A stretch of 63,718 nucleotides of DNA, counting the filler, from Collodictyon triciliatum (Eukaryota), in NCBI GenBank assembly GCA_043381765.1. It is 4 parts of 4 records of this genome, joined end to end, with 100 filler letters (N's around TTAATTAATTAA, not from the genome) between each part and the next. Parts side by side here need not be neighbours in the genome. Positions count along the whole stretch, not along the records: positions 1 to 22,728 come from JBHJMP010001275.1; 3 more parts are not named here. One strand, given 5' to 3'. Positions 6,101 through 63,718 of the stretch are shown here, piece by piece (the first letter of the stretch is position 1; each line of letters opens with the position of its first letter). The translations under genes were made by a program, and so were the position numbers. The notes under the pieces are model-generated. The model did not search any database. It was not told the origin of the DNA and was given only the letters and a program-made list of their open reading frames with translations.

Positions 6101-7757
6101 TTGTAACTTTTGGGGCTAAATCCATTCAAAAATCAAATGGATAAACTGAAAACCTTTTTTTTTTTTGTCTCATATCCGACATATGTGCATAGAACCGCTA
6201 ACAGCAACTTTTTTGCCGAGTTTTGGGACCGCTGGGTCGATTGGTCTGATGATATCCCTTCACGCTCTCGAATTCACTTTATGTCCAAGAGTCAGTTTCT
6301 CCTCGATCAAACGTAAATGAATTATCTCACACTGACGAATGACAAAATCGTATACATGTATAAACTTTGTTTCTCTGAAATAGAACACTCGCATTACTGT
6401 TAACATTAGTATTGCCCGTGTTAATATATTATTATTATTATTATTATTATTATGATTATTATTATTATTATTATTATGATTATTATTATTATTATGATTT
6501 GGAGATGAAGTTTAAGTAGCCCGATAAATTATTCGCCTTCATTTATTTACTCGTTCAATACCACGACACAGATATGTATTCATGAAGGCAGCACTTGTTT
6601 TTATATCTGTTTACTTCTACAACTCAATCCAAACTGTTGTGTTCTTCCTTTTGATGACGAATGTATTCATCATGGTCGCAATTCTTCGAAGTCCCCCTTA
6701 CTACTCAAAAACGGTCTCTGCCTTCGTAAGTCAAAATGGCATAATTCTTTTGTCACCTCTGCTACGACTAGAAGTTCATAGCATTTTTTTTTTTATAAAA
6801 AACAAATTCAAATTCAAATACATATGCACAGATTCTTTTTTTTTTTAGTCAGCTATTACTATTCCTCTTCTTAACCTACTAAATAAATGAGAGTTGCCTC
6901 CACACACATGCAGCTCCATACTTACGCATGAGTTTATGTCATAACACACCGCCAGAGATTCTCCATGGTTTGCTGCATCTGCCTCGCATTCTCTGAGATC
7001 ATCATATTCAAAATAGTGGGCATAGAGTCGATGCTCTACTGGGCTCTTTTCATCGGGGGCCTCTGCCCCATGGCTCTGGTTTCATACCAGATCACATGTG
7101 AGTGTTTGCACATATCCACACATCCCACCCACTCAAAACATCGCCCGTATCGCAGACTAAATGCAAACACCCCCGATGCCAGTCTACTACTACACCATGA
7201 AATCGCAGCAGGCCGTGGCGCAGCTTGACATTCTTGACGTCGAGCACACAAGCCCCAAGGGATATCGGCCAGCGAGCGGCAAACACCTGGACAGACCCCA
7301 GGCCGAGAAGGCTGACTCCGAACTACCCGCCGAGTCTGCACCCAACAGAAACCAACCCGAATCGCAGCACCATCCAGCAGCAAGCACCGAAAAAGACGAT
7401 GGTGGCTACAAACACAGCCATAATAATAATAATGATGATGATGATGATAATGATGATGATGATGATGCCGCTGCACCGTCGTCCTTCTCCGCAGCCTCCA
7501 TCCAGCAGAAGAGCGCGTATGCAGAGTCCTCCAGCGCAGCCGCCATGTCTCCAACCACAGCCGCCTTCGAAGCACACGCCACTCCGCCGCAGAAAGTGAT
7601 GCAGATAAGAAACCCGCCAAACTTGGGGCCTGTCAAAACGCGGTTGCCACACGCAGGCGTTCTTCCGGCAGCCCCGCCAAAGCCCGGCACGCGCGTTCTC
7701 CCCCCGATAGCCTCCTCCAGAGTCGCCCCAAGTCCGCCGCCTGCAAAGGACGCTTAG
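161..7757 (+). CDS. Multi-exon protein: PB1-like domain, WD40 repeats, multi-pass TM domain and Pro/acidic tail (5' end outside window)
   Basis: Manually joined GT-AG exons: EDIRLLLLSPNVTQRELV..SNDDDLEAY (PB1-like, ~915-1264); WD repeats LFTSSDDYTIRGWN, CSCGRDNSVRIWD, CSCGLDNKVIIWD, YSGSNDRSIISWD, ITAGTDGHVILWE, GHFDPINC..YTAGADSHIRSF; TM block LLLLFIDFFQMVTYPF, MFVPVTRKLFQVYNC..EC..KHLLY, SPPYYSKT; last exon reaches TAG at 7757. A few internal junctions are unresolved. Confidence 0.75.
693..782. repeat. (AAAAACC)n heptamer repeat at gap edge
   Basis: Direct reading. Confidence 0.9.
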
Positions 7758-8771
7758 CGATGTCTTGCCTGCCCCTTTGGCGCTTCCCTTCCGCTTCCGC
7801 TTGCTTGCTTGCCGCGGTTTGTGTCTTGAGAACTCTGCACAGCCTCCAAAGCGCGCAGTCCAAACACAAAACACAGGAAACGCAAGAAACAAGGATCCGT
7901 GCAAGAAAAAGACAAGGGAAGAGAAAAGAGTAGTATTATTGCATTATAAAGCGACTCGCAACTTGTCAGGAAGCCACGCGCTTTGCCGGAAACCCCGAGT
8001 CTCTGGGATAATGGAGTCAAAGGGCGCTGTGCTGATCTCTGGGCGCTTGTTTTTACTCTCGATTTTTTCTTTCTGTCTTTTGTTTTCTTTGGAGCAGGAT
8101 CCCTCTCTGGCTGACTTCCTTGCGCTGCGTTTGCATCGAAGCATCGAAGTAAAAAAGAAAAAAAAGAAAGAAAGGAAGGAGGGAAGAAAGAGTCGCTCGC
8201 ACAATAGTGCAATGGCCGTGATCGCCGCTCCGTCGCTTCTTCCATTCTTGTGCGGGGCTGCTTTGATCGTCGCTGGCGTCTTCGTGCCGCTCTTCCGGCT
8301 CTACAAGAACAGGCATCCAGAGACAAAGCAGACGTGATCTGCCTCCACTTTTCTTCTTCGGCCTTTCCCTCAGTTCGTTTGCGCGGTTGTACTCCCTCCC
8401 TCTCAAAGACATGGCTCTCCTCACACGCCCGCAACCTTTCTCTGATAATACACCGCCAAGATATCTGCATCGAAAAACAGCTGCAATGGCTTTCATTCGA
8501 AGGAGAATGGTCGAAGCCTGTGGAGGATTTAGGGAAGAAAAAAAGGCGATTGAAAGCAAAAAGCACAACTTGTCAGGTGAAGAAGGCCACCACTTCCAAT
8601 TGTACGAGGCGGCGTAGAGGCAGTAGAAAATAAGAGAAAAAAAAAGGAGGGAATAGAGAAGAGAGCAAGAATGAAAGGAAAGAGTTGCTGCTTGGAGCGA
8701 AACATGAAACACACGGAGCAAAAGTCCGCCAGAGCTCGTTGCCGTCTGCTTGATGCTCCCCCCAGACATTC

Positions 8772-11700
8772 CTATTCGCCCTGCTCTTCCATCCACTCGA
8801 CATTCTTGCTGAACATCATCCACACGTCTGTCTGCTCCACCACACGGTATAAACTCACCGCCCTTTTCATCATGATTTCTGCCTGTTCGCACTCTTCAGC
8901 CTTAAAGCCTCTCAAACGTTGCATATCTCGTACAATCGCTTCAGTGGCCTAATCAAGAGTGAAGCGAAGCTCAGCTCACACATGCCTACGTTCAATCCAT
9001 AGACGCTTTCGCTTTGGTTTTGTGCGAGCGTGTGATATTAATTATAATAAAATAAAATAAAAAACAGTCCAAAATGACTGGTTTTAGCATCTCTTCAAAG
9101 AGCCTCAACCAAACTCACATGAATAATGCCGCTTCTCACTCTCCTCGATACGGCAAGCGTAGTGCAAACTAAGTCCACACCAAAACAAAAAAAAATGTAT
9201 TATAGTCGTACCCAAGTATTCGACTTTTTTCTTCATTAACTCATATTCGATTCATTCGAATAAAGGAAAAAAATTCATATTTGATTCATACTATATATAC
9301 ATGACTTTTAAATCAGTGGGATATATAATCACATACCTGCATCTCCAAAGCAATCATACATAAACTCATGATTTCCTGTATTCAATACATGAAACCGTTG
9401 CTCAGCCAGCCATAGATAATTACATACAGCCCACAAAGAAGCGAAGACATAAATAAGTAGCTGACTTCTTACCTATCAATCCGTAAACCAGATTTCCTTT
9501 GTCGATGCATATCCCGGCTTGGACGCCATTGTTTGATTCAAGGCGGCTCATAAGATTGAAGAAATTCACAACCTTTAAATCGAATATCGTCAGATTCCCT
9601 GCGAGAACCATTCGATTGCATTCACTATGTGAGCTTATGAAGAAATATTCTATTTCAAGCAGCTACTACTTGAAATCCGAACTGCAGTGCTTGCTCCAAA
9701 AGCTTTGTGGTCTTCTCTAGACTTTTGTTTGAGTCGATGGCTTTCGGGATGACCTAAACGATTCAATTGCTAAGTAAATGCAAAAACAATGACATACTGC
9801 GGTCGATTCTATACACTTTGAAGGTATTCCAGCCATAGTGATGTAAAGGGATGCTTACAACCACATGGCTTGAAGACGCTTTGACCACCTCCATGCGAAG
9901 CGATTTCGCCAGACCCTCGATAGCCCTGACCGTATCTGTTGTGTATATGTGTGTTTGTTTGGAAAGATAGACGCGTCTCACAAGTCACGCACAAATCCAA
10001 ATATCCTGACCTGATACTCTCACGAAATCTGACCCGGTAGTATCCACCTCTTTTGCAAACAGATATCGTATGTGAATGGTAACGATGACCGAGTCTTGGA
10101 TAAAAGAATTTGAGGAGAAGCGGTTGCCCCTGAGATTTTCAAGCATTTGGTCGTTCAAAGCTGAGAGAAGCACCTTCTCATTTGTCTCGTTTTCATCAAC
10201 GAGCTCGTCAATGCCCTTAAATGTGTAGATATGACAAAAAAGGAAGAATAAATTCATGTGATGGATGAAATTCTTGATTTATATTGGGTGAGTGCTTCAT
10301 GTAAATGAACGGCATGAAAGTAGAAGAGGTTCAACATTCAAATATATAATGGGTACCTTGTTCAGATGGTTTGTATCTAGATATTCTTTCCTCGTATTTA
10401 AATCTCGGGATATTGAGAGAGAATAGAATATAAAAAACGGTATCGCTGACCAATTCACTATAGAAACCCCTCTCTGATTTTGAGCGATGCTAGAGAATTA
10501 ACAATCAGCACCACAATATATAATTTATCAAAAGGATTCTAAAGTACTTACCCCATTTTCGCATTATAATGAAATACTAAAAACATCCAGGATGATAGCC
10601 ATACAAATATTTGCATTAAAATAGGACATGTTGAGACTGACAAGGATGAAACAAAATAGAAGCCGATTTGGTATATCTCTGAGAATAGGAACCCTGATTT
10701 ATACCAATTTAAATGACAACCAAGACCGTAATCTCCATAGACCAGCAGCAAGCGACTCAAAGAGAAGGTTCCATACACCATCCCAACAATCAATGGTATG
10801 TCCCAAATATTCACCATCTTGTAGATGTAGCTCTCCGATGATTCCCAAAAGTAAAATGCTCCCGACAAGCACACTACAACAGGAAGACTCACAAAATATC
10901 GCACAAAAAATATCGGACTTGTTGCTACGTCCAAGTCTTGGCATTCCTCCTCCAAAATACAATAGTCGATATATCCATAGCAAATCAACGATAAAATCAC
11001 AGACAATAGCTGTATCCTGGTGCGTGTCATCATTCAATAATGAGCTTACTTTTCCTTCAAAATACCGACCAAGCTCTGTCCAATATGATAATCTAATAAC
11101 CATGTCAGTATATTTATCATAACTGATATTTACTCACATCGTGGTTTTCCTGTTTCTCTTCGTCTGCAAGCTTCTCTGGAAATCCTCTTCCTCCTCTTTT
11201 CTCACGAATCGCAGGTCTCCAAACGTCCCAAACAATCCTCTTGTTTGACGAGCGAGCTTGTATGGATTTGCAGACTCTACATCCTGTAAATAGAGACACT
11301 GTCACTGCAATATTTTGTTCTGCGCAGGGGTTATCAAACCATATTTCCTCATTCTATCGTTAGTCTCACAAGGCACCTACCACCTGGCTATCTTTTGTCC
11401 CCAGTGTTTGTGCCGTGTCTTCAAACTCCTTATGAATGCTTCGGCCCAGTGCATGCTGGACAGGATTTCCCTGAATACCTATTTGACTGGCGTACTTGAG
11501 CATCCACCTTTGTTTCGGCTGCACATTTGACGTGAAGTGCACCTTCTCGAATGAGCAAATGTCGCTCTATATCGCCGGACGAAAAGATAAAGATATCATA
11601 TGATGTGAATATATTTGCAAAGAAGGTTACAAATGGCTGAAATGATGTTTTGAGGGTCTCTTTGAGCGATGTGGATGTCTTTTCACTCCCAAAATCGCTC

Positions 11701-15719: not shown

Positions 15720-20398
<4,679 letters not shown>

Positions 20399-21585
20399 CG
20401 CAGTTGGCAGACTATTGAAGGGCGGGCTACTTGGCAGATCCTGACTTCTATTCCCCAGAGCGTAAAAGAAACAAATCGCAACGAAAAAGAAAAAAAAAAA
20501 GACTAGTAAATAAAAAGCGTCACTGCACTCGCTTACTGCGGGATGGAAAGCCCTTTAGGACGAAGTTTAGGGTTATGCGAGAATTCCCTCGAATAGAAAA
20601 AAAGGAGCTATCAGTGGAGAACTGGACTTTACGCGAGAGGATTCTGGCTAAAGTTCAATCCGTGCCCACATCATTCAGCGACGCAGTTTTTGTGGTATTA
20701 GTATCTATTTATTTTTGTCTTTTGTTTTTTGCCCGAGACAAGATGAGTTGATTTAAGGAAAGCTCACAATTAGAAAAACATCCACCCTTCAAATAAGAGG
20801 ATTATCCGGGCTGCATCTTTTGTGCAGAACAGAGGCAACGATTCTGTAGATGATAAACACAATCTGTGAGCGTGTCAACATCGCCTCCATATCCGGTTCT
20901 TTGTGTCATTACACAGCTTTCTTCTCTTTCATCTTTTTTCTTTCGATATTCGAATAAACAGCACCAATATGTTCTCATTATTTTCTTAGCTAGTGGAATA
21001 AAACAACGTGGGTTATCCATCCGGCGTTACATGACAAGCTTGGGAAACAGACCGTTACATGCCAAGACCAGTTACCGACCCAACGAATGATATTCATATG
21101 CTTTTCCTTGAGCGAAACTTGAAAAACTGAGACGTGCGACTTGGATTGCCAGTGGGATTTTTTTTCAGACGCCATTCAGTTCTAACATGAAGTGCATTTG
21201 CCAGATTGTATGACATGCCCCTCTGTGCTATGACCCAAACAAACTTACGAATCATAGGATTTCATATCAATCTATGCCCGGTTTTACACGTATAATGGTG
21301 ACAGAACTTAAAAGATGCATAAAAGAGCGCCAATCAGATTGAATACCAAAGCAAGGCTCGTACAGGCTGAGTCCATACCGGGGATATCGGCTCGAATGAA
21401 CTCCCAGTCAAGATTTGCAAACATTATGTTTTCTTGTGTATCCTTTTCCTTTCCCTTTCGCCAGCAGTCAACTCGCAAATCTTCAAGTGTGGCTGGCCCA
21501 TGTCTGGCTTGTCGAATATCTGAACACTAGACTTTGATAATCGATTAAGTGGCATGTATTTGCCTTATTTTATTTTCCTTTTTAT

Positions 21586-21745
21586 CTCATAAATGAGCTT
21601 TATCTACTGACTAGAAGGGGTATACCATCTTTTAATTGGCAAACCTGGTGCGCTAGTATCCAAGGTCTCGCCACTTTTTTCACAAAGGTCGTGTAGTGGT
21701 GAAGGCTGCCAGGTAAGACCCGACAGCCTGTTTTTTAGAGGAAGG
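21586..21745 (-). ncRNA. Candidate Fanzor omegaRNA scaffold / element 3' end
   Basis: Lies directly downstream of the Fanzor stop. Consecutive stem-loops on the minus strand: AGGCTGTCGGGT-CTT-ACCTGGCAGCCT (21729-21703, 12 bp including two G-U), TCACCACT..AGTGGCGA with inner CACGA/TTGTG (21702-21668), GACCTTGG..CCAGGTT (21667-21642). Boundaries inferred. Confidence 0.6.
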
Positions 21746-21753
21746 TGTATGCA

Positions 21754-22728
21754 TTATTGAAGAATTAAAAGACCTTTCTTGAGTATATCATTAGCGCTGT
21801 TAAAGTTCCTTATCAAGAATACACTTTGTTTGCTTTTTGAGCGATTGCATTATATACATATGAGACATCTATACACTTTTTTTTTGAATTTCCTATCAGT
21901 TTCATATATTCCAGTTCTTTTTCGCAGTTACAACACATCTTGGAGGTTCTAAATTCATTTTCACTAAATGGTTCAAAACGTTTGGATACTATTTTTCGTA
22001 ATCCTCTTCCGATTGTTGCCATAAAATGGTTCATCTGACATTTTCTACTCCTGTCTCCATACGCCAGTACAACATCCTTGCCAAAATGTCTTTTCGATCC
22101 GGTCCATAAAGAACTGTTCACTTCTTTTTGTGTTAACATACTGTCTCCATATCATCTTTCGAAAAGTTACGTGTTCATAAAATCTGGGTAGGTCTATCTG
22201 GTATCTTGATTTCATATATATATATTTTCGAAAACTTTAATCAACCGTGCATGAATTATGTTTACTCAGTTCTGTCTCTAAATCGATTAAAGATGCTCTT
22301 GATGTCTCAAACTGCCGATTCTCTTCAAAAGTCATGTGACTATAAGAAACAGCACTTTGTAGATCTGTTGCCATGTATATCCCTGAAAAATTGTATTTTC
22401 TTTTTTTTTTCTTGCGCAAGAGTATTTTGTGATTTTTAAGAGATTTGCTATCATGTCTTCTTCGGTGTGCCGTGTAACGTAATTGCTTACCTGTCTCGTC
22501 CACCATGTAAACCATATTAAACTTGCCTGCGTCCACTCAAACTATTTTTTTTTTGTCTCTGATAAAGATAACTGCTCTTCGGAAAGCTCATATAAATAAA
22601 CATGTTCTTGGGGGGTTTTTTTTGGTTATATTTGAATTTTGAATTTGAAATACCTTTCTTTTCAAACAATAATGACACCACCTAGCCGTCTGTTTGTATC
22701 ATGTATTTGAAAGTGTAGTCTCTTTGAT
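21754..22728 (-). pseudogene. Fanzor (eukaryotic TnpB-like RNA-guided endonuclease), C-terminal half, disrupted; 5' part lost at contig end
   Basis: Translation across stops and frameshifts: YTFKYMIQTDG*VVSLLF; KIV*VDAGKFNMVYM (RuvC-I); LETELSKHNSCTVD; FYEHVTFRKMIWRQY..RSEQFFMDRIEKTF/GKDVVLAYGDRS; GRGLRK; NEFRTSKMCCNC (RuvC-II Glu plus Zn finger); RCLICI*C; RNFNSANDIL (RuvC-III). No introns. Confidence 0.9.
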
Positions 22729-22828
22729 NNNNNNNNNNNNNNNNNNNNNNNNNNNNNNNNNNNNNNNNNNNNTTAATTAATTAANNNNNNNNNNNNNNNN
22801 NNNNNNNNNNNNNNNNNNNNNNNNNNNN
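22729..22828. other. Artificial contig linker N44-TTAATTAATTAA-N44
   Basis: 12-mer with stops in all six frames centred in N; identical construct occurs three times. Confidence 0.95.
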
Positions 22829-22830
22829 AT

Positions 22831-23568
22831 TCACAGACAGAGGCGCTCACGGACTGTATCCTGCGTTTCGGTGCCACAACAGAGTGGTTTACCTTTGTCG
22901 ATGTTGACGAATTTGTTGTCCCAGCGGCTCCTTATCCCTCCATTCACCACATCCTAACCCACACGCCTCTATCAAATTCCTCATACATTCATGTAAAGTG
23001 GATTACATTCGGGCCCTGCACGCATCCACGCGAAAAGAAACCATTTGACTCATCCAGCACCATACAAACGTTAAATTCAAACAACACGTTGCCCATGACT
23101 CCATCGCCATCACCGATATACTCGCCTCCTCTCCATAGCCAACAGTTGCTTTTGTCAAATCGCACACTGGCCATGGAAATATGCCACTCAAAAACAAAGG
23201 TCGGCTCCGAACTTCCCAAAGCCATCTTTCGGGCACGTGGTGCGGTAAGCATTCACGGCTACGGGCCTCATCATGTTCGGTTGGTTAACGACCTGGGCTC
23301 CTCAAACAGAACAAACGGTGTACCTGGTGATGAGTACATGCGAGTGTATCATTACCGATACAAGACTTGGAATGACTTCTTCTCACGGCGCTTGGGCCCC
23401 ATCGCCGGGCTCTCTTCCAAGTGGACAGAGTTGTCCCTTCGTGGCTCGTGGAACAGAGGTCTCAGAAATAGAAAACCGTTCCCAAAAGAAAAAAACACCA
23501 TCCTTCGATTCATCCCGAAACTTCGACAGCGGCTAAATCTAACAGAGTCTATCCTTGGGTTCAGGTGA
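22831..23568 (+). CDS. Glycosyltransferase family 92 / DUF23-like (GT-A fold), 5' truncated by gap
   Basis: Uninterrupted frame QTEALTDCILRFGATTEWFTFVDVDEFVVP..VKWITFG..PKAIFR..PHHV..VYHYRYKTW; DxD motif in DVDEF; TGA at 23568. Confidence 0.75.
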   Translation, partial: SQTEALTDCILRFGATTEWFTFVDVDEFVVPAAPYPSIHHILTHTPLSNSSYIHVKWITFGPCTHPREKKPFDSSSTIQTLNSNNTLPMTPSPSPIYSPPLHSQQLLLSNRTLAMEICHSKTKVGSELPKAIFRARGAVSIHGYGPHHVRLVNDLGSSNRTNGVPGDEYMRVYHYRYKTWNDFFSRRLGPIAGLSSKWTELSLRGSWNRGLRNRKPFPKEKNTILRFIPKLRQRLNLTESILGFR

Positions 23569-24278: not shown

Positions 24279-30045
<5,767 letters not shown>

Positions 30046-31039: not shown

Positions 31040-34905
<3,866 letters not shown>

Positions 34906-36399: not shown

Positions 36400-41960
<5,561 letters not shown>

Positions 41961-55567: not shown

Positions 55568-61877
<6,310 letters not shown>

Positions 61878-62562: not shown

Positions 62563-62662
62563 NNNNNNNNNNNNNNNNNNNNNNNNNNNNNNNNNNNNNN
62601 NNNNNNTTAATTAATTAANNNNNNNNNNNNNNNNNNNNNNNNNNNNNNNNNNNNNNNNNNNN
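62563..62662. other. Artificial contig linker N44-TTAATTAATTAA-N44
   Basis: Same construct, 12-mer at 62607-62618. Confidence 0.95.
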
Positions 62663-62919: not shown

Positions 62920-63128
62920 ATGATAATAATAATATAATATAATAATAATAATAATAAATAATTATAATTACTAATAAATATATAAATAAATAATAAAATA
63001 ATAATAAAATAATTATAAAATAATAATAATAATAATAATAATATATAATATAATAACTAATAAAATCATAACAATAAATAACCATAACAATCAACAATCA
63101 TATAACAATAATAACTAATAACATAACA

Positions 63129-63160
<32 letters not shown>

Positions 63161-63211
63161 GATAATATAATAATCATCCATAATAATAATAACAATAATA
63201 ATAATAATAAC

Positions 63212-63273
<62 letters not shown>

Positions 63274-63282
63274 TAACATTAA
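62920..63282. repeat. Degenerate (TAA)n low-complexity tract
   Basis: Direct reading. Confidence 0.9.
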
Positions 63283-63324
63283 TATGTGTCTCATAAATGA
63301 TTTGCAATGAGCAAGGCAGCCAAC

Positions 63325-63660
63325 CTGCGTTCCTCCCCATTCACAGGCCGACCGAACCAAGTCGTAGAAATCATAGTTTCCACGGGCACACCGGCACAAA
63401 AGCCCTGCAGCCAGCAAAACGGCAGCGTCTGTCCGGCTCACAATGACTTCCGAGTTTGTTTCGGCCGTCAGGAGAACACTATGCGGTGTCTTTGACACTT
63501 GGGCTGCGAGAGACTCAACAAACGGGAAAGTGTTTGTGAGATACAGCTCGCTCTCGTCCTTCGCCAAGCGGTGGGTGAGAATCTCCAAAACATAGTCTCG
63601 GACCTCTGTTGCGCGACCGTATTCTTCCGAGTTGTCGTGGGGAGTCGCTGTGTCGGCCAT
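63325..63660 (-). CDS. First exon of a gene, weakly resembling the helical domain of poly(ADP-ribose) glycohydrolase
   Basis: GC-rich ORF MADTATP..YLTNTFPFVESLAAQV..VIVSRTDAAVLLAAGLLC ending at CAG|GTTGG. The resemblance is recalled only, and no catalytic GGG-QEE motif is in view. Confidence 0.4.
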
Positions 63661-63718
63661 GTCTTTTGTCTTCTGTATATATGTTTATTTTATTGCCTCC
63701 TGCCTGATGCCTGCCAGC

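Follow-up and report, generated by a model that had tools for sequence, protein, structure and literature searches.

A probable decayed Fanzor1 gene upstream of an Ima1-like gene in Collodictyon triciliatum

Introduction

The closest described counterparts of the locus considered here are the Fanzor1 proteins, among them SpuFz1 of the chytrid Spizellomyces punctatus (PDB 8GKH and others), for which, as for other Fanzors, RNA-guided cleavage of DNA is presented as an established mechanism (PMC10432273, PMC10530073, PMC10711439). In the account given in PMC10432273, the metals of SpuFz1 are coordinated by D383, N385, E541 and D606, and the genome of its host contains, in addition to partial copies, 134 'ghost' loci without an open reading frame (ORF). 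According to PMC10711439, a TDG motif is characteristic of the WED domain of Fanzor1 and specific to that group, and the RuvC plus zinc-finger architecture, together with the D-P-G signature and an alternative Glu as marks of the RuvC domain, is common to Fanzor1, Fanzor2 and TnpB. PMC10530073 describes a Gly or Pro substitution at the canonical RuvC-II position in Fanzors, with the alternative Glu lying downstream. The other Fanzor1 proteins of known structure that matter here, PpFz1 of Parasitella parasitica (PDB 9CF0) and GtFz1 of Guillardia theta (PDB 9CER), are active and much larger than the segment analyzed below.

This segment occupies positions 21754-22728, on the minus strand, of a 63,718-nt stretch of DNA (hereafter the window) from Collodictyon triciliatum (assembly GCA_043381765.1). 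With a probability of about 0.9, it is the C-terminal part of a dead Fanzor1 pseudogene that was formerly carried by a mobile DNA element and lies ~1.4 kb upstream of an Ima1-like host gene. The homology on which this assignment is based, the fate of the catalytic motifs, the relatives of the segment, its lesions and its genomic setting are presented in turn, and the competing explanations are weighed where the relevant evidence appears.

Homology and extent of the remnant

The remnant at 21754-22728 (minus strand) represents the C-terminal ~300 codons of a Fanzor1-type gene, namely the end of the WED domain, the RuvC domain and the zinc-finger/TNB region, and corresponds to residues ~307-600 of a 634-aa relative, P0006, as judged by frameshift-aware alignment, tblastn and profile matches. 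In the frameshift-aware protein-to-DNA alignment, residues 307-625 of P0006 correspond to 22726-21658 with 150 identities among 314 aligned residues, and residues 72-357 of a second relative, P0005, to 22726-21784 (137/272 identical). When all 2,892 ORF pieces from six-frame translation of the window were searched with a profile of 10 relatives, four colinear pieces of the remnant were recovered, with E-values of 1.6e-29, 1.9e-15, 2e-13 and 0.0038, and outside the remnant no piece fell below E 0.36. The likeness to Fanzors in a hidden Markov model search on which the first-pass annotation had staked its reading is thus present, and the similarity is confirmed by these comparisons as far above chance.

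Individual pieces point in the same direction. For a 112-aa piece (21816-22151), the sole PDB match at E ≤ 10 is the Fanzor 1 of P. parasitica (E 7.3e-7), and for a 163-aa piece (22045-22536) the only PDB matches are GtFz1 (E 0.02) and SpuFz1 (E 0.13); the latter matches are colinear and sit upstream in the chain, in the order expected. Among 1.84 billion representative proteins, the 112-aa piece has 212 matches at E ≤ 1e-3 (29 at E ≤ 1e-10), in which the matching position is ~480-570 in relatives of ~600-650 aa. A word-index protein search with the same piece returned no match in the 'longer' length class and, in the 'near' class, a single 82-aa fragment, P0270.

The full-length relative provides the link to characterized proteins. 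P0006 aligns with SpuFz1 end to end (E 9.2e-37 across residues 14-607), as well as with PpFz1 (E 7.2e-34) and GtFz1 (E 7e-16) in the PDB, and at E ≤ 10 it otherwise retrieved just one spurious 77-aa designed protein; no TnpB, Cas12 or Fanzor2 chain was matched at that threshold, the presence of such entries in the PDB copy searched being unverified. The remnant is colinear with the same region of SpuFz1, although the direct match is the weak one given above. It differs from SpuFz1 in being broken, in missing its N-terminal half and in having an Asn at the position of D606, and it scores 79 bits against P0006 and similar proteins vs 33 bits against PpFz1. Pfam scans of the window's ORFs contain no TnpA-like domain, and nothing there places the remnant with Fanzor2 or the IS607 TnpB proteins. 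Taken as a matter of sequence descent, the remnant belongs to Fanzor1. The earlier description of an intronless, minus-strand Fanzor1-type coding remnant lying in host DNA is borne out by PDB matches restricted to Fanzor1 and by the end-to-end alignment of P0006 with SpuFz1.

Reading frames and catalytic motifs

Three-frame translation of the minus strand over 21754-22728 gives a chain of ORF pieces. The first (22685-22726) ends in TDG and is closed by the TAG at 22682-22684, after which VVSLLF follows and then, in another frame, a stretch with the relatives-like reading ELSEEQLSLSE. The second (22240-22536) begins with VDAGK directly after a TGA, and the third (22048-22236) after a TAA. A fourth piece, in a different frame (21816-22151), holds YGDRS, NEFRTSK and CCNC, and the fifth, in yet another frame (21757-21882), holds CLIC, a TAA and RNFNSANDIL before the terminal TAA at 21754-21756 that ends the frame of the remnant.

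These motifs align with those of intact relatives. The TDG of the Fanzor1 WED domain (22685-22693) falls on the TDG of P0006, P0005 and SpuFz1, and precedes the RuvC-I Asp by ~53 codons, the spacing being 54 in P0006. RuvC-I, read as VDAGK at 22522-22536, is aligned with ADPGK of P0006 and, through it, with D383 of SpuFz1; its catalytic Asp is retained (22531-22533) and D-P-G has become D-A-G by loss of the Pro to Ala. At the canonical RuvC-II position, YGDRS (22047-22061) has the Gly seen in Fanzors, and in this motif the Trp of GDWS, invariant as W498 in the 10-sequence alignment (A1), is replaced by Arg. The alternative, relocated RuvC-II Glu lies in NEFRTSK (21939-21959), where it is retained at 21954-21956, 34 residues past the Gly of YGDRS, in line with E530 of P0006 (invariant in A1) and thence E541 of SpuFz1. 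Both CxxC pairs of the zinc finger are present, CCNC at 21924-21935 and CLIC at 21856-21867, but they are separated by a frameshift in an A9 run (~21882), a stop follows right after the second, and PF07282 is undetected on the pieces. In RuvC-III, RNFNSANDIL (21781-21810), the catalytic Asp, which is D581 in P0006 (invariant in A1) and D606 in SpuFz1, is changed to Asn (AAC, 21805-21807), so that the Asp of the Fanzor1 R-D-x-N motif is not found.

The correspondence with SpuFz1 holds for the complete motif set: in the alignment of P0006, the TDG, the RuvC-I Asp, GDWS, the alternative Glu in xE(F/Y)xTS, the zinc-finger cysteines and the RuvC-III R-D all line up. D372, E530 and D581 of P0006, nearly invariant or invariant in A1, pair with D383, E541 and D606; together with N385, the SpuFz1 residues are numbers 777, 779, 935 and 1000 of the chain in that alignment (offset 394). 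Several features fit the published Fanzor signatures, namely the Gly at RuvC-II, the Glu 34 residues downstream, the D-P-G signature (D-A-G in the remnant) and the TDG of the WED domain. All motifs listed in the first-pass annotation, from TDG..SLLF, VDAGK and YGDRS to the relocated Glu, the C-x-x-C and RNFNSANDIL, were found where it had placed them. Its use of TDG and GDWS as Fanzor1-like marks also stands, but not their use as a mark of a group carried by large DNA viruses: both motifs occur in the chytrid SpuFz1, and therefore mark Fanzor1 generally.

Relatives, sister fragments and the question of a viral origin

The nearest public relatives of the remnant, at 74-82% identity, are short broken fragments. 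P0270 (82 aa, from NCBI; 67/82 identical) reads through the site at 22085 without a frameshift and has a later break of its own. P0001 (59 aa; 42/56 identical) begins out of frame and continues across 22085 without a break, and thus has the frameshift of the window, and P0002 (136 aa; 86/116 identical) has the same shifted starting frame and further shifts of its own. P0002 keeps the RuvC-III Asp (TRDFNSAN) and has a Glu where the window has its stop at 21850. From the shifted frame of P0001 and P0002, it follows that the 22085 frameshift is common to these two and not to P0270, which suggests some copying or vertical inheritance after breakage. By their alignments, the three fragments turn out to have been translated from further broken copies, in other words from mis-annotated sister pseudogenes. 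Read in this way, the remnant takes its place among several diverged, broken copies of one sub-lineage, the fragments coming from public protein sets that are not tied to this genome.

Full-length relatives are more distant: P0006 and similar proteins are just ~48-50% identical to the remnant. The group of P0006 comprises 1,638 proteins at E ≤ 1e-10, and PF26935 (DUF8286 in the protein-cluster atlas consulted) is present on all 120 listed; DUF8286 is not mentioned in any of the papers searched. This group has the same motif set as the remnant, but an identity to it of only ~48%, and is known mostly from metagenome contigs; in the atlas the group is labelled mostly as giant-virus, a label to be taken as a lead.

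These labels introduce a first competing explanation, in which the remnant would be a relic of integrated giant-virus (Nucleocytoviricota) DNA and not part of a transposon family resident in the host. The closest full-length relatives belong to a group whose atlas clusters, those nearest P0005, are 78-96% viral and mostly Nucleocytoviricota, a lead given without alignment or E-value, and P0157, which has 88% identity to P0006, carries the name 'Transposase, Tax=viral metagenome'. The base composition could be read in the same sense (G+C of 33.4% in the remnant vs 42.2% in the adjoining 20187-21753), and the 5' side of the element is hidden by a spacer. Against this, the clusters nearest the remnant piece itself are 88-96% eukaryotic (Zoopagomycota, Oomycota and Mucoromycota), with one half-viral cluster at rank 6, again as a lead only; the virus-labelled group is only ~48-50% identical to the remnant; no Nucleocytoviricota hallmark domain was found in Pfam scans of the window's ORFs; and a host exon stands 1.44 kb away on an uninterrupted stretch. 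A viral relic is considered improbable, and a decayed Fanzor1 gene once carried by a mobile DNA element is retained as the preferred interpretation.

A scan of bacterial and archaeal genomes with the 10-sequence alignment returned 43 stretches matching the pattern, three of which encode a relative. The three loci (L001, 1022-2674; L002, 3-572; L003, 57-1331) are Fanzor1-like genes with 30-50% identity to P0006; their contigs, 1.6-2.7 kb long, are assigned to bacterial metagenome-assembled genomes (Alphaproteobacteria, Bacteroidetes and Flavobacterium) and offer no usable context. Eukaryotic or viral DNA binned in error is their probable source, and they fit the description, in PMC10711439, of 'prokaryotic Fanzor1-like' records as short or mis-assigned contigs. 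None of the three has non-coding similarity to the window.

Lesions and the question of a live gene

Four nonsense codons interrupt the minus-strand frame of the remnant: a TAG at 22682-22684, directly after TDG and opposite an Ile of relatives; a TGA at 22537-22539, just before RuvC-I and opposite a Gly; a TAA at 22237-22239, opposite Tyr, Val or Glu; and a TAA at 21850-21852, opposite Gly or Glu. The frameshift-aware alignment also requires at least four frame switches, one or more within 22592-22635 and one each at ~22554, ~22085 and ~21880-21903. Relative to all compared relatives, ~33 extra codons are found at approximately 22290-22400 (minus strand), as an insertion or a highly diverged stretch in which the alignment has gaps. 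An intron was considered as the source of this insertion and rejected, as no GT...AG interval fits by eye and the only GTAAG lies inside well-aligned coding sequence. The four in-frame stops and the several frameshifts announced in the first-pass annotation were thus recovered by translation and alignment, and its verdict of a dead copy, drawn from the RuvC-III change of Asp to Asn, holds and is strengthened by the stops. With an Asn in RuvC-III and stops in place of the intact frame of a Fanzor1, the segment is classed as a pseudogene of Fanzor1 descent rather than a working Fanzor1.

The contrary possibility, that a live gene is present and that its breaks are artefacts of homopolymer errors, unrecognized introns or a variant genetic code, draws on the position of three of the frame switches within long homopolymer runs and on the occurrence of introns in Fanzor genes, which PMC10530073 describes as possible. 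Sequencing errors in such runs would, however, leave untouched the four stops and the Asp-to-Asn change, to which is added the replacement of an invariant Trp by Arg, and no GT...AG interval was seen by eye that would take the stops out. A variant genetic code is ruled out, since all three kinds of stop codon stand opposite differing residues of relatives; the host ORFs of the window, moreover, are normal under the standard code. It is thus highly improbable that this locus is a live gene. As assembled and translated here, the copy cannot be other than inert, given its nonsense codons, frame switches, substituted Asp and Trp, insertion of ~33 codons and lack of an N-terminal half.

Boundaries and genomic setting

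The 5' boundary of the remnant is not biological. It is set by an artificial spacer of 100 nt (22729-22828), made of 44 N, TTAATTAATTAA and 44 N, at which the contig stops, so that ~306 N-terminal codons are lost together with the left end of the element. This is why the N-terminal half is absent: the equivalent of residues 1-306 of P0006, where the REC region of a Fanzor1 with its kinked REC2 helices would be expected, lies beyond the contig end at 22729, and tblastn with full-length relatives found no trace of it elsewhere in the window. Identical spacers occupy 22729-22828, 42676-42775 and 62563-62662, ~19.9 kb apart, with unrelated sequence on their sides (a cut ORF, an A84 run and a 10-nt tandem repeat). 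It follows that the window joins pieces that were assembled separately and whose adjacency at the spacers is unestablished. Immediately to the right of the first spacer, an open frame of 245 aa (22831-23565, plus strand) has a Glyco_transf_92 (GT92) match (E 2.7e-10) confined to profile positions 84-217, its N-terminal part being absent.

On the other side, the remnant lies 1,439 nt upstream of, and on the same strand as, a gene for an Ima1-like inner nuclear membrane protein. The first exon of this gene (20183-20314, minus strand) matches Ima1_N positions 2-34 with E 4.1e-6 (28.2 bits vs a cut-off of 28.9), and a second exon (19479-19619, minus strand) matches positions 61-91 with E 0.046. 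The two are colinear, and between them are an (AAGA)24 microsatellite, a gap of 204 N and a (CAA)35 repeat; the first escaped ORF-based scans because its frame enters the N gap. No N occurs within 20091-22728, so that the remnant and the first Ima1-like exon are on one uninterrupted stretch, as the first reading of this DNA had proposed in calling them contiguous. An assembly error, or contaminant DNA fused to that of the host, which might be suspected from a contig end inside the element, three artificial spacers in the window and a G+C content unlike that of the flank, is close to negligible as an explanation, given this continuity and the fact that contig ends inside repeated elements are expected for multi-copy families.

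Downstream of the terminal stop, 21658-21753 (minus strand) may contain a decayed C-terminal tail, a guide-RNA region or both; the extension of P0006 into it is weak and needs two more frameshifts. The interval 21500-21800 (minus strand) folds at -67.9 kcal/mol (z -2.42; 2 of 100 shuffles as stable or better), which is compatible with the relic of a guide-RNA scaffold or with chance. A perfect 12-bp hairpin is present near 21700-21730, just downstream of the stop of the remnant. No Rfam family was found, with gathering scores over the whole window and at E ≤ 1 over 20300-22728, and there are no tRNAs.

The remainder of the window has the character of eukaryotic nuclear DNA, with ~38% G+C, many microsatellites and small exons. 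Pfam domains delineate exons of a DEAH-box helicase (OB/HA2; 24503-26247, minus strand), PP2A B56 (33512-34164, minus), a Sec24-like protein (Sec23/24; 36941-41132, plus), an Mcl1/Ctf4-like protein (42949-43224, plus), a WD40 protein (47289-47735, minus), an Arm repeat protein (56334-58054, minus), a C2 protein (59238-59513, minus) and PARG (63118-63684, minus). Such ordinary eukaryotic exons mark the pieces beyond the first spacer as host DNA rich in introns. A block at ~7000-9000 has ~50-55% G+C vs ~35% around it and contains overlapping frames of 150-280 aa on both strands with no Pfam match, some of them rich in runs of histidine, aspartate or isoleucine. At 26994-27392, a (AAAAGGGAA)n tandem array produces a spurious 'Collagen' Pfam match below the cut-off and is low-complexity sequence, not a gene.

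Weight of the evidence

Several observations weigh against the interpretation of the segment as a Fanzor1 pseudogene of mobile-element origin. At the level of domains, none of the five ORF pieces of the remnant matches any relevant Pfam or NCBIfam family, and PF07282, the Cas12f1-like TNB domain of Fanzor2 and IS607/IS605 TnpB, is weak even among the relatives, being found at E ≤ 0.01 in just 14 of 20 full-length or long ones and reaching the cut-off in 4 of the 20. Taken alone, the TDG piece has no PDB match, and the RuvC-III piece has a chance zinc-finger match (E 2.2). The true number of lesions may be lower than counted, as the three frame switches in A9-A10 or A9C6 homopolymer runs are possible sequencing errors. 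A Fanzor family in this genome, as signalled in the first-pass annotation, is a possibility. As for mobility, Pfam scans of the window's ORFs contain no transposase domain; no convincing inverted or direct repeats or target-site duplication were found in 20091-22728, the left end of the remnant being missing; and tblastn, blastn and repeat searches for a second copy in the window gave microsatellite matches only. For this reason, the mobile-element part of the interpretation rests on knowledge of the family.

Mechanism and significance

If the ancestor behaved like the characterized Fanzors, from which its mechanism is inferred, the gene would have sat on a mobile DNA element inserted ~1.4 kb upstream of the Ima1-like gene, and the live protein would have been an RNA-guided double-strand DNA endonuclease dependent on a target-adjacent motif (TAM). 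Its guide RNA (omegaRNA, fRNA or reRNA) would have been a transcript of the gene's 3' end and of the element's right end and would have paired with a target beside such a short motif, after which a RuvC site composed of the RuvC-I Asp, the relocated Glu and the RuvC-III Asp would have cut the DNA.

Decayed and partial Fanzor copies are already known, and the remnant adds another. Alone it is of little importance, as an ordinary fossil of the transposon type, and the expectation in the first-pass annotation of a new programmable nuclease is unsupported, no intact close copy having been found. It does carry a warning for annotation, in that gene callers have made short, wrong-frame 'proteins' such as P0001 and P0002 from sister copies. 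A more ambitious view, rather unlikely on present evidence, is that the DUF8286-type Fanzor1 lineage, otherwise known chiefly from metagenome contigs of giant-virus type, has a branch resident in the host to which the remnant belongs, and that an intact sister with its own guide RNA and TAM might persist in the genome; if true, such a branch would be a trace of genes passing between this eukaryote and large DNA viruses. The value of the remnant is that of a marker, indicating that a Fanzor1 sub-lineage ~48% identical to the large, largely virus-labelled DUF8286 group probably once lived in this genome, where intact copies might turn up or the extinction of the family might be dated.

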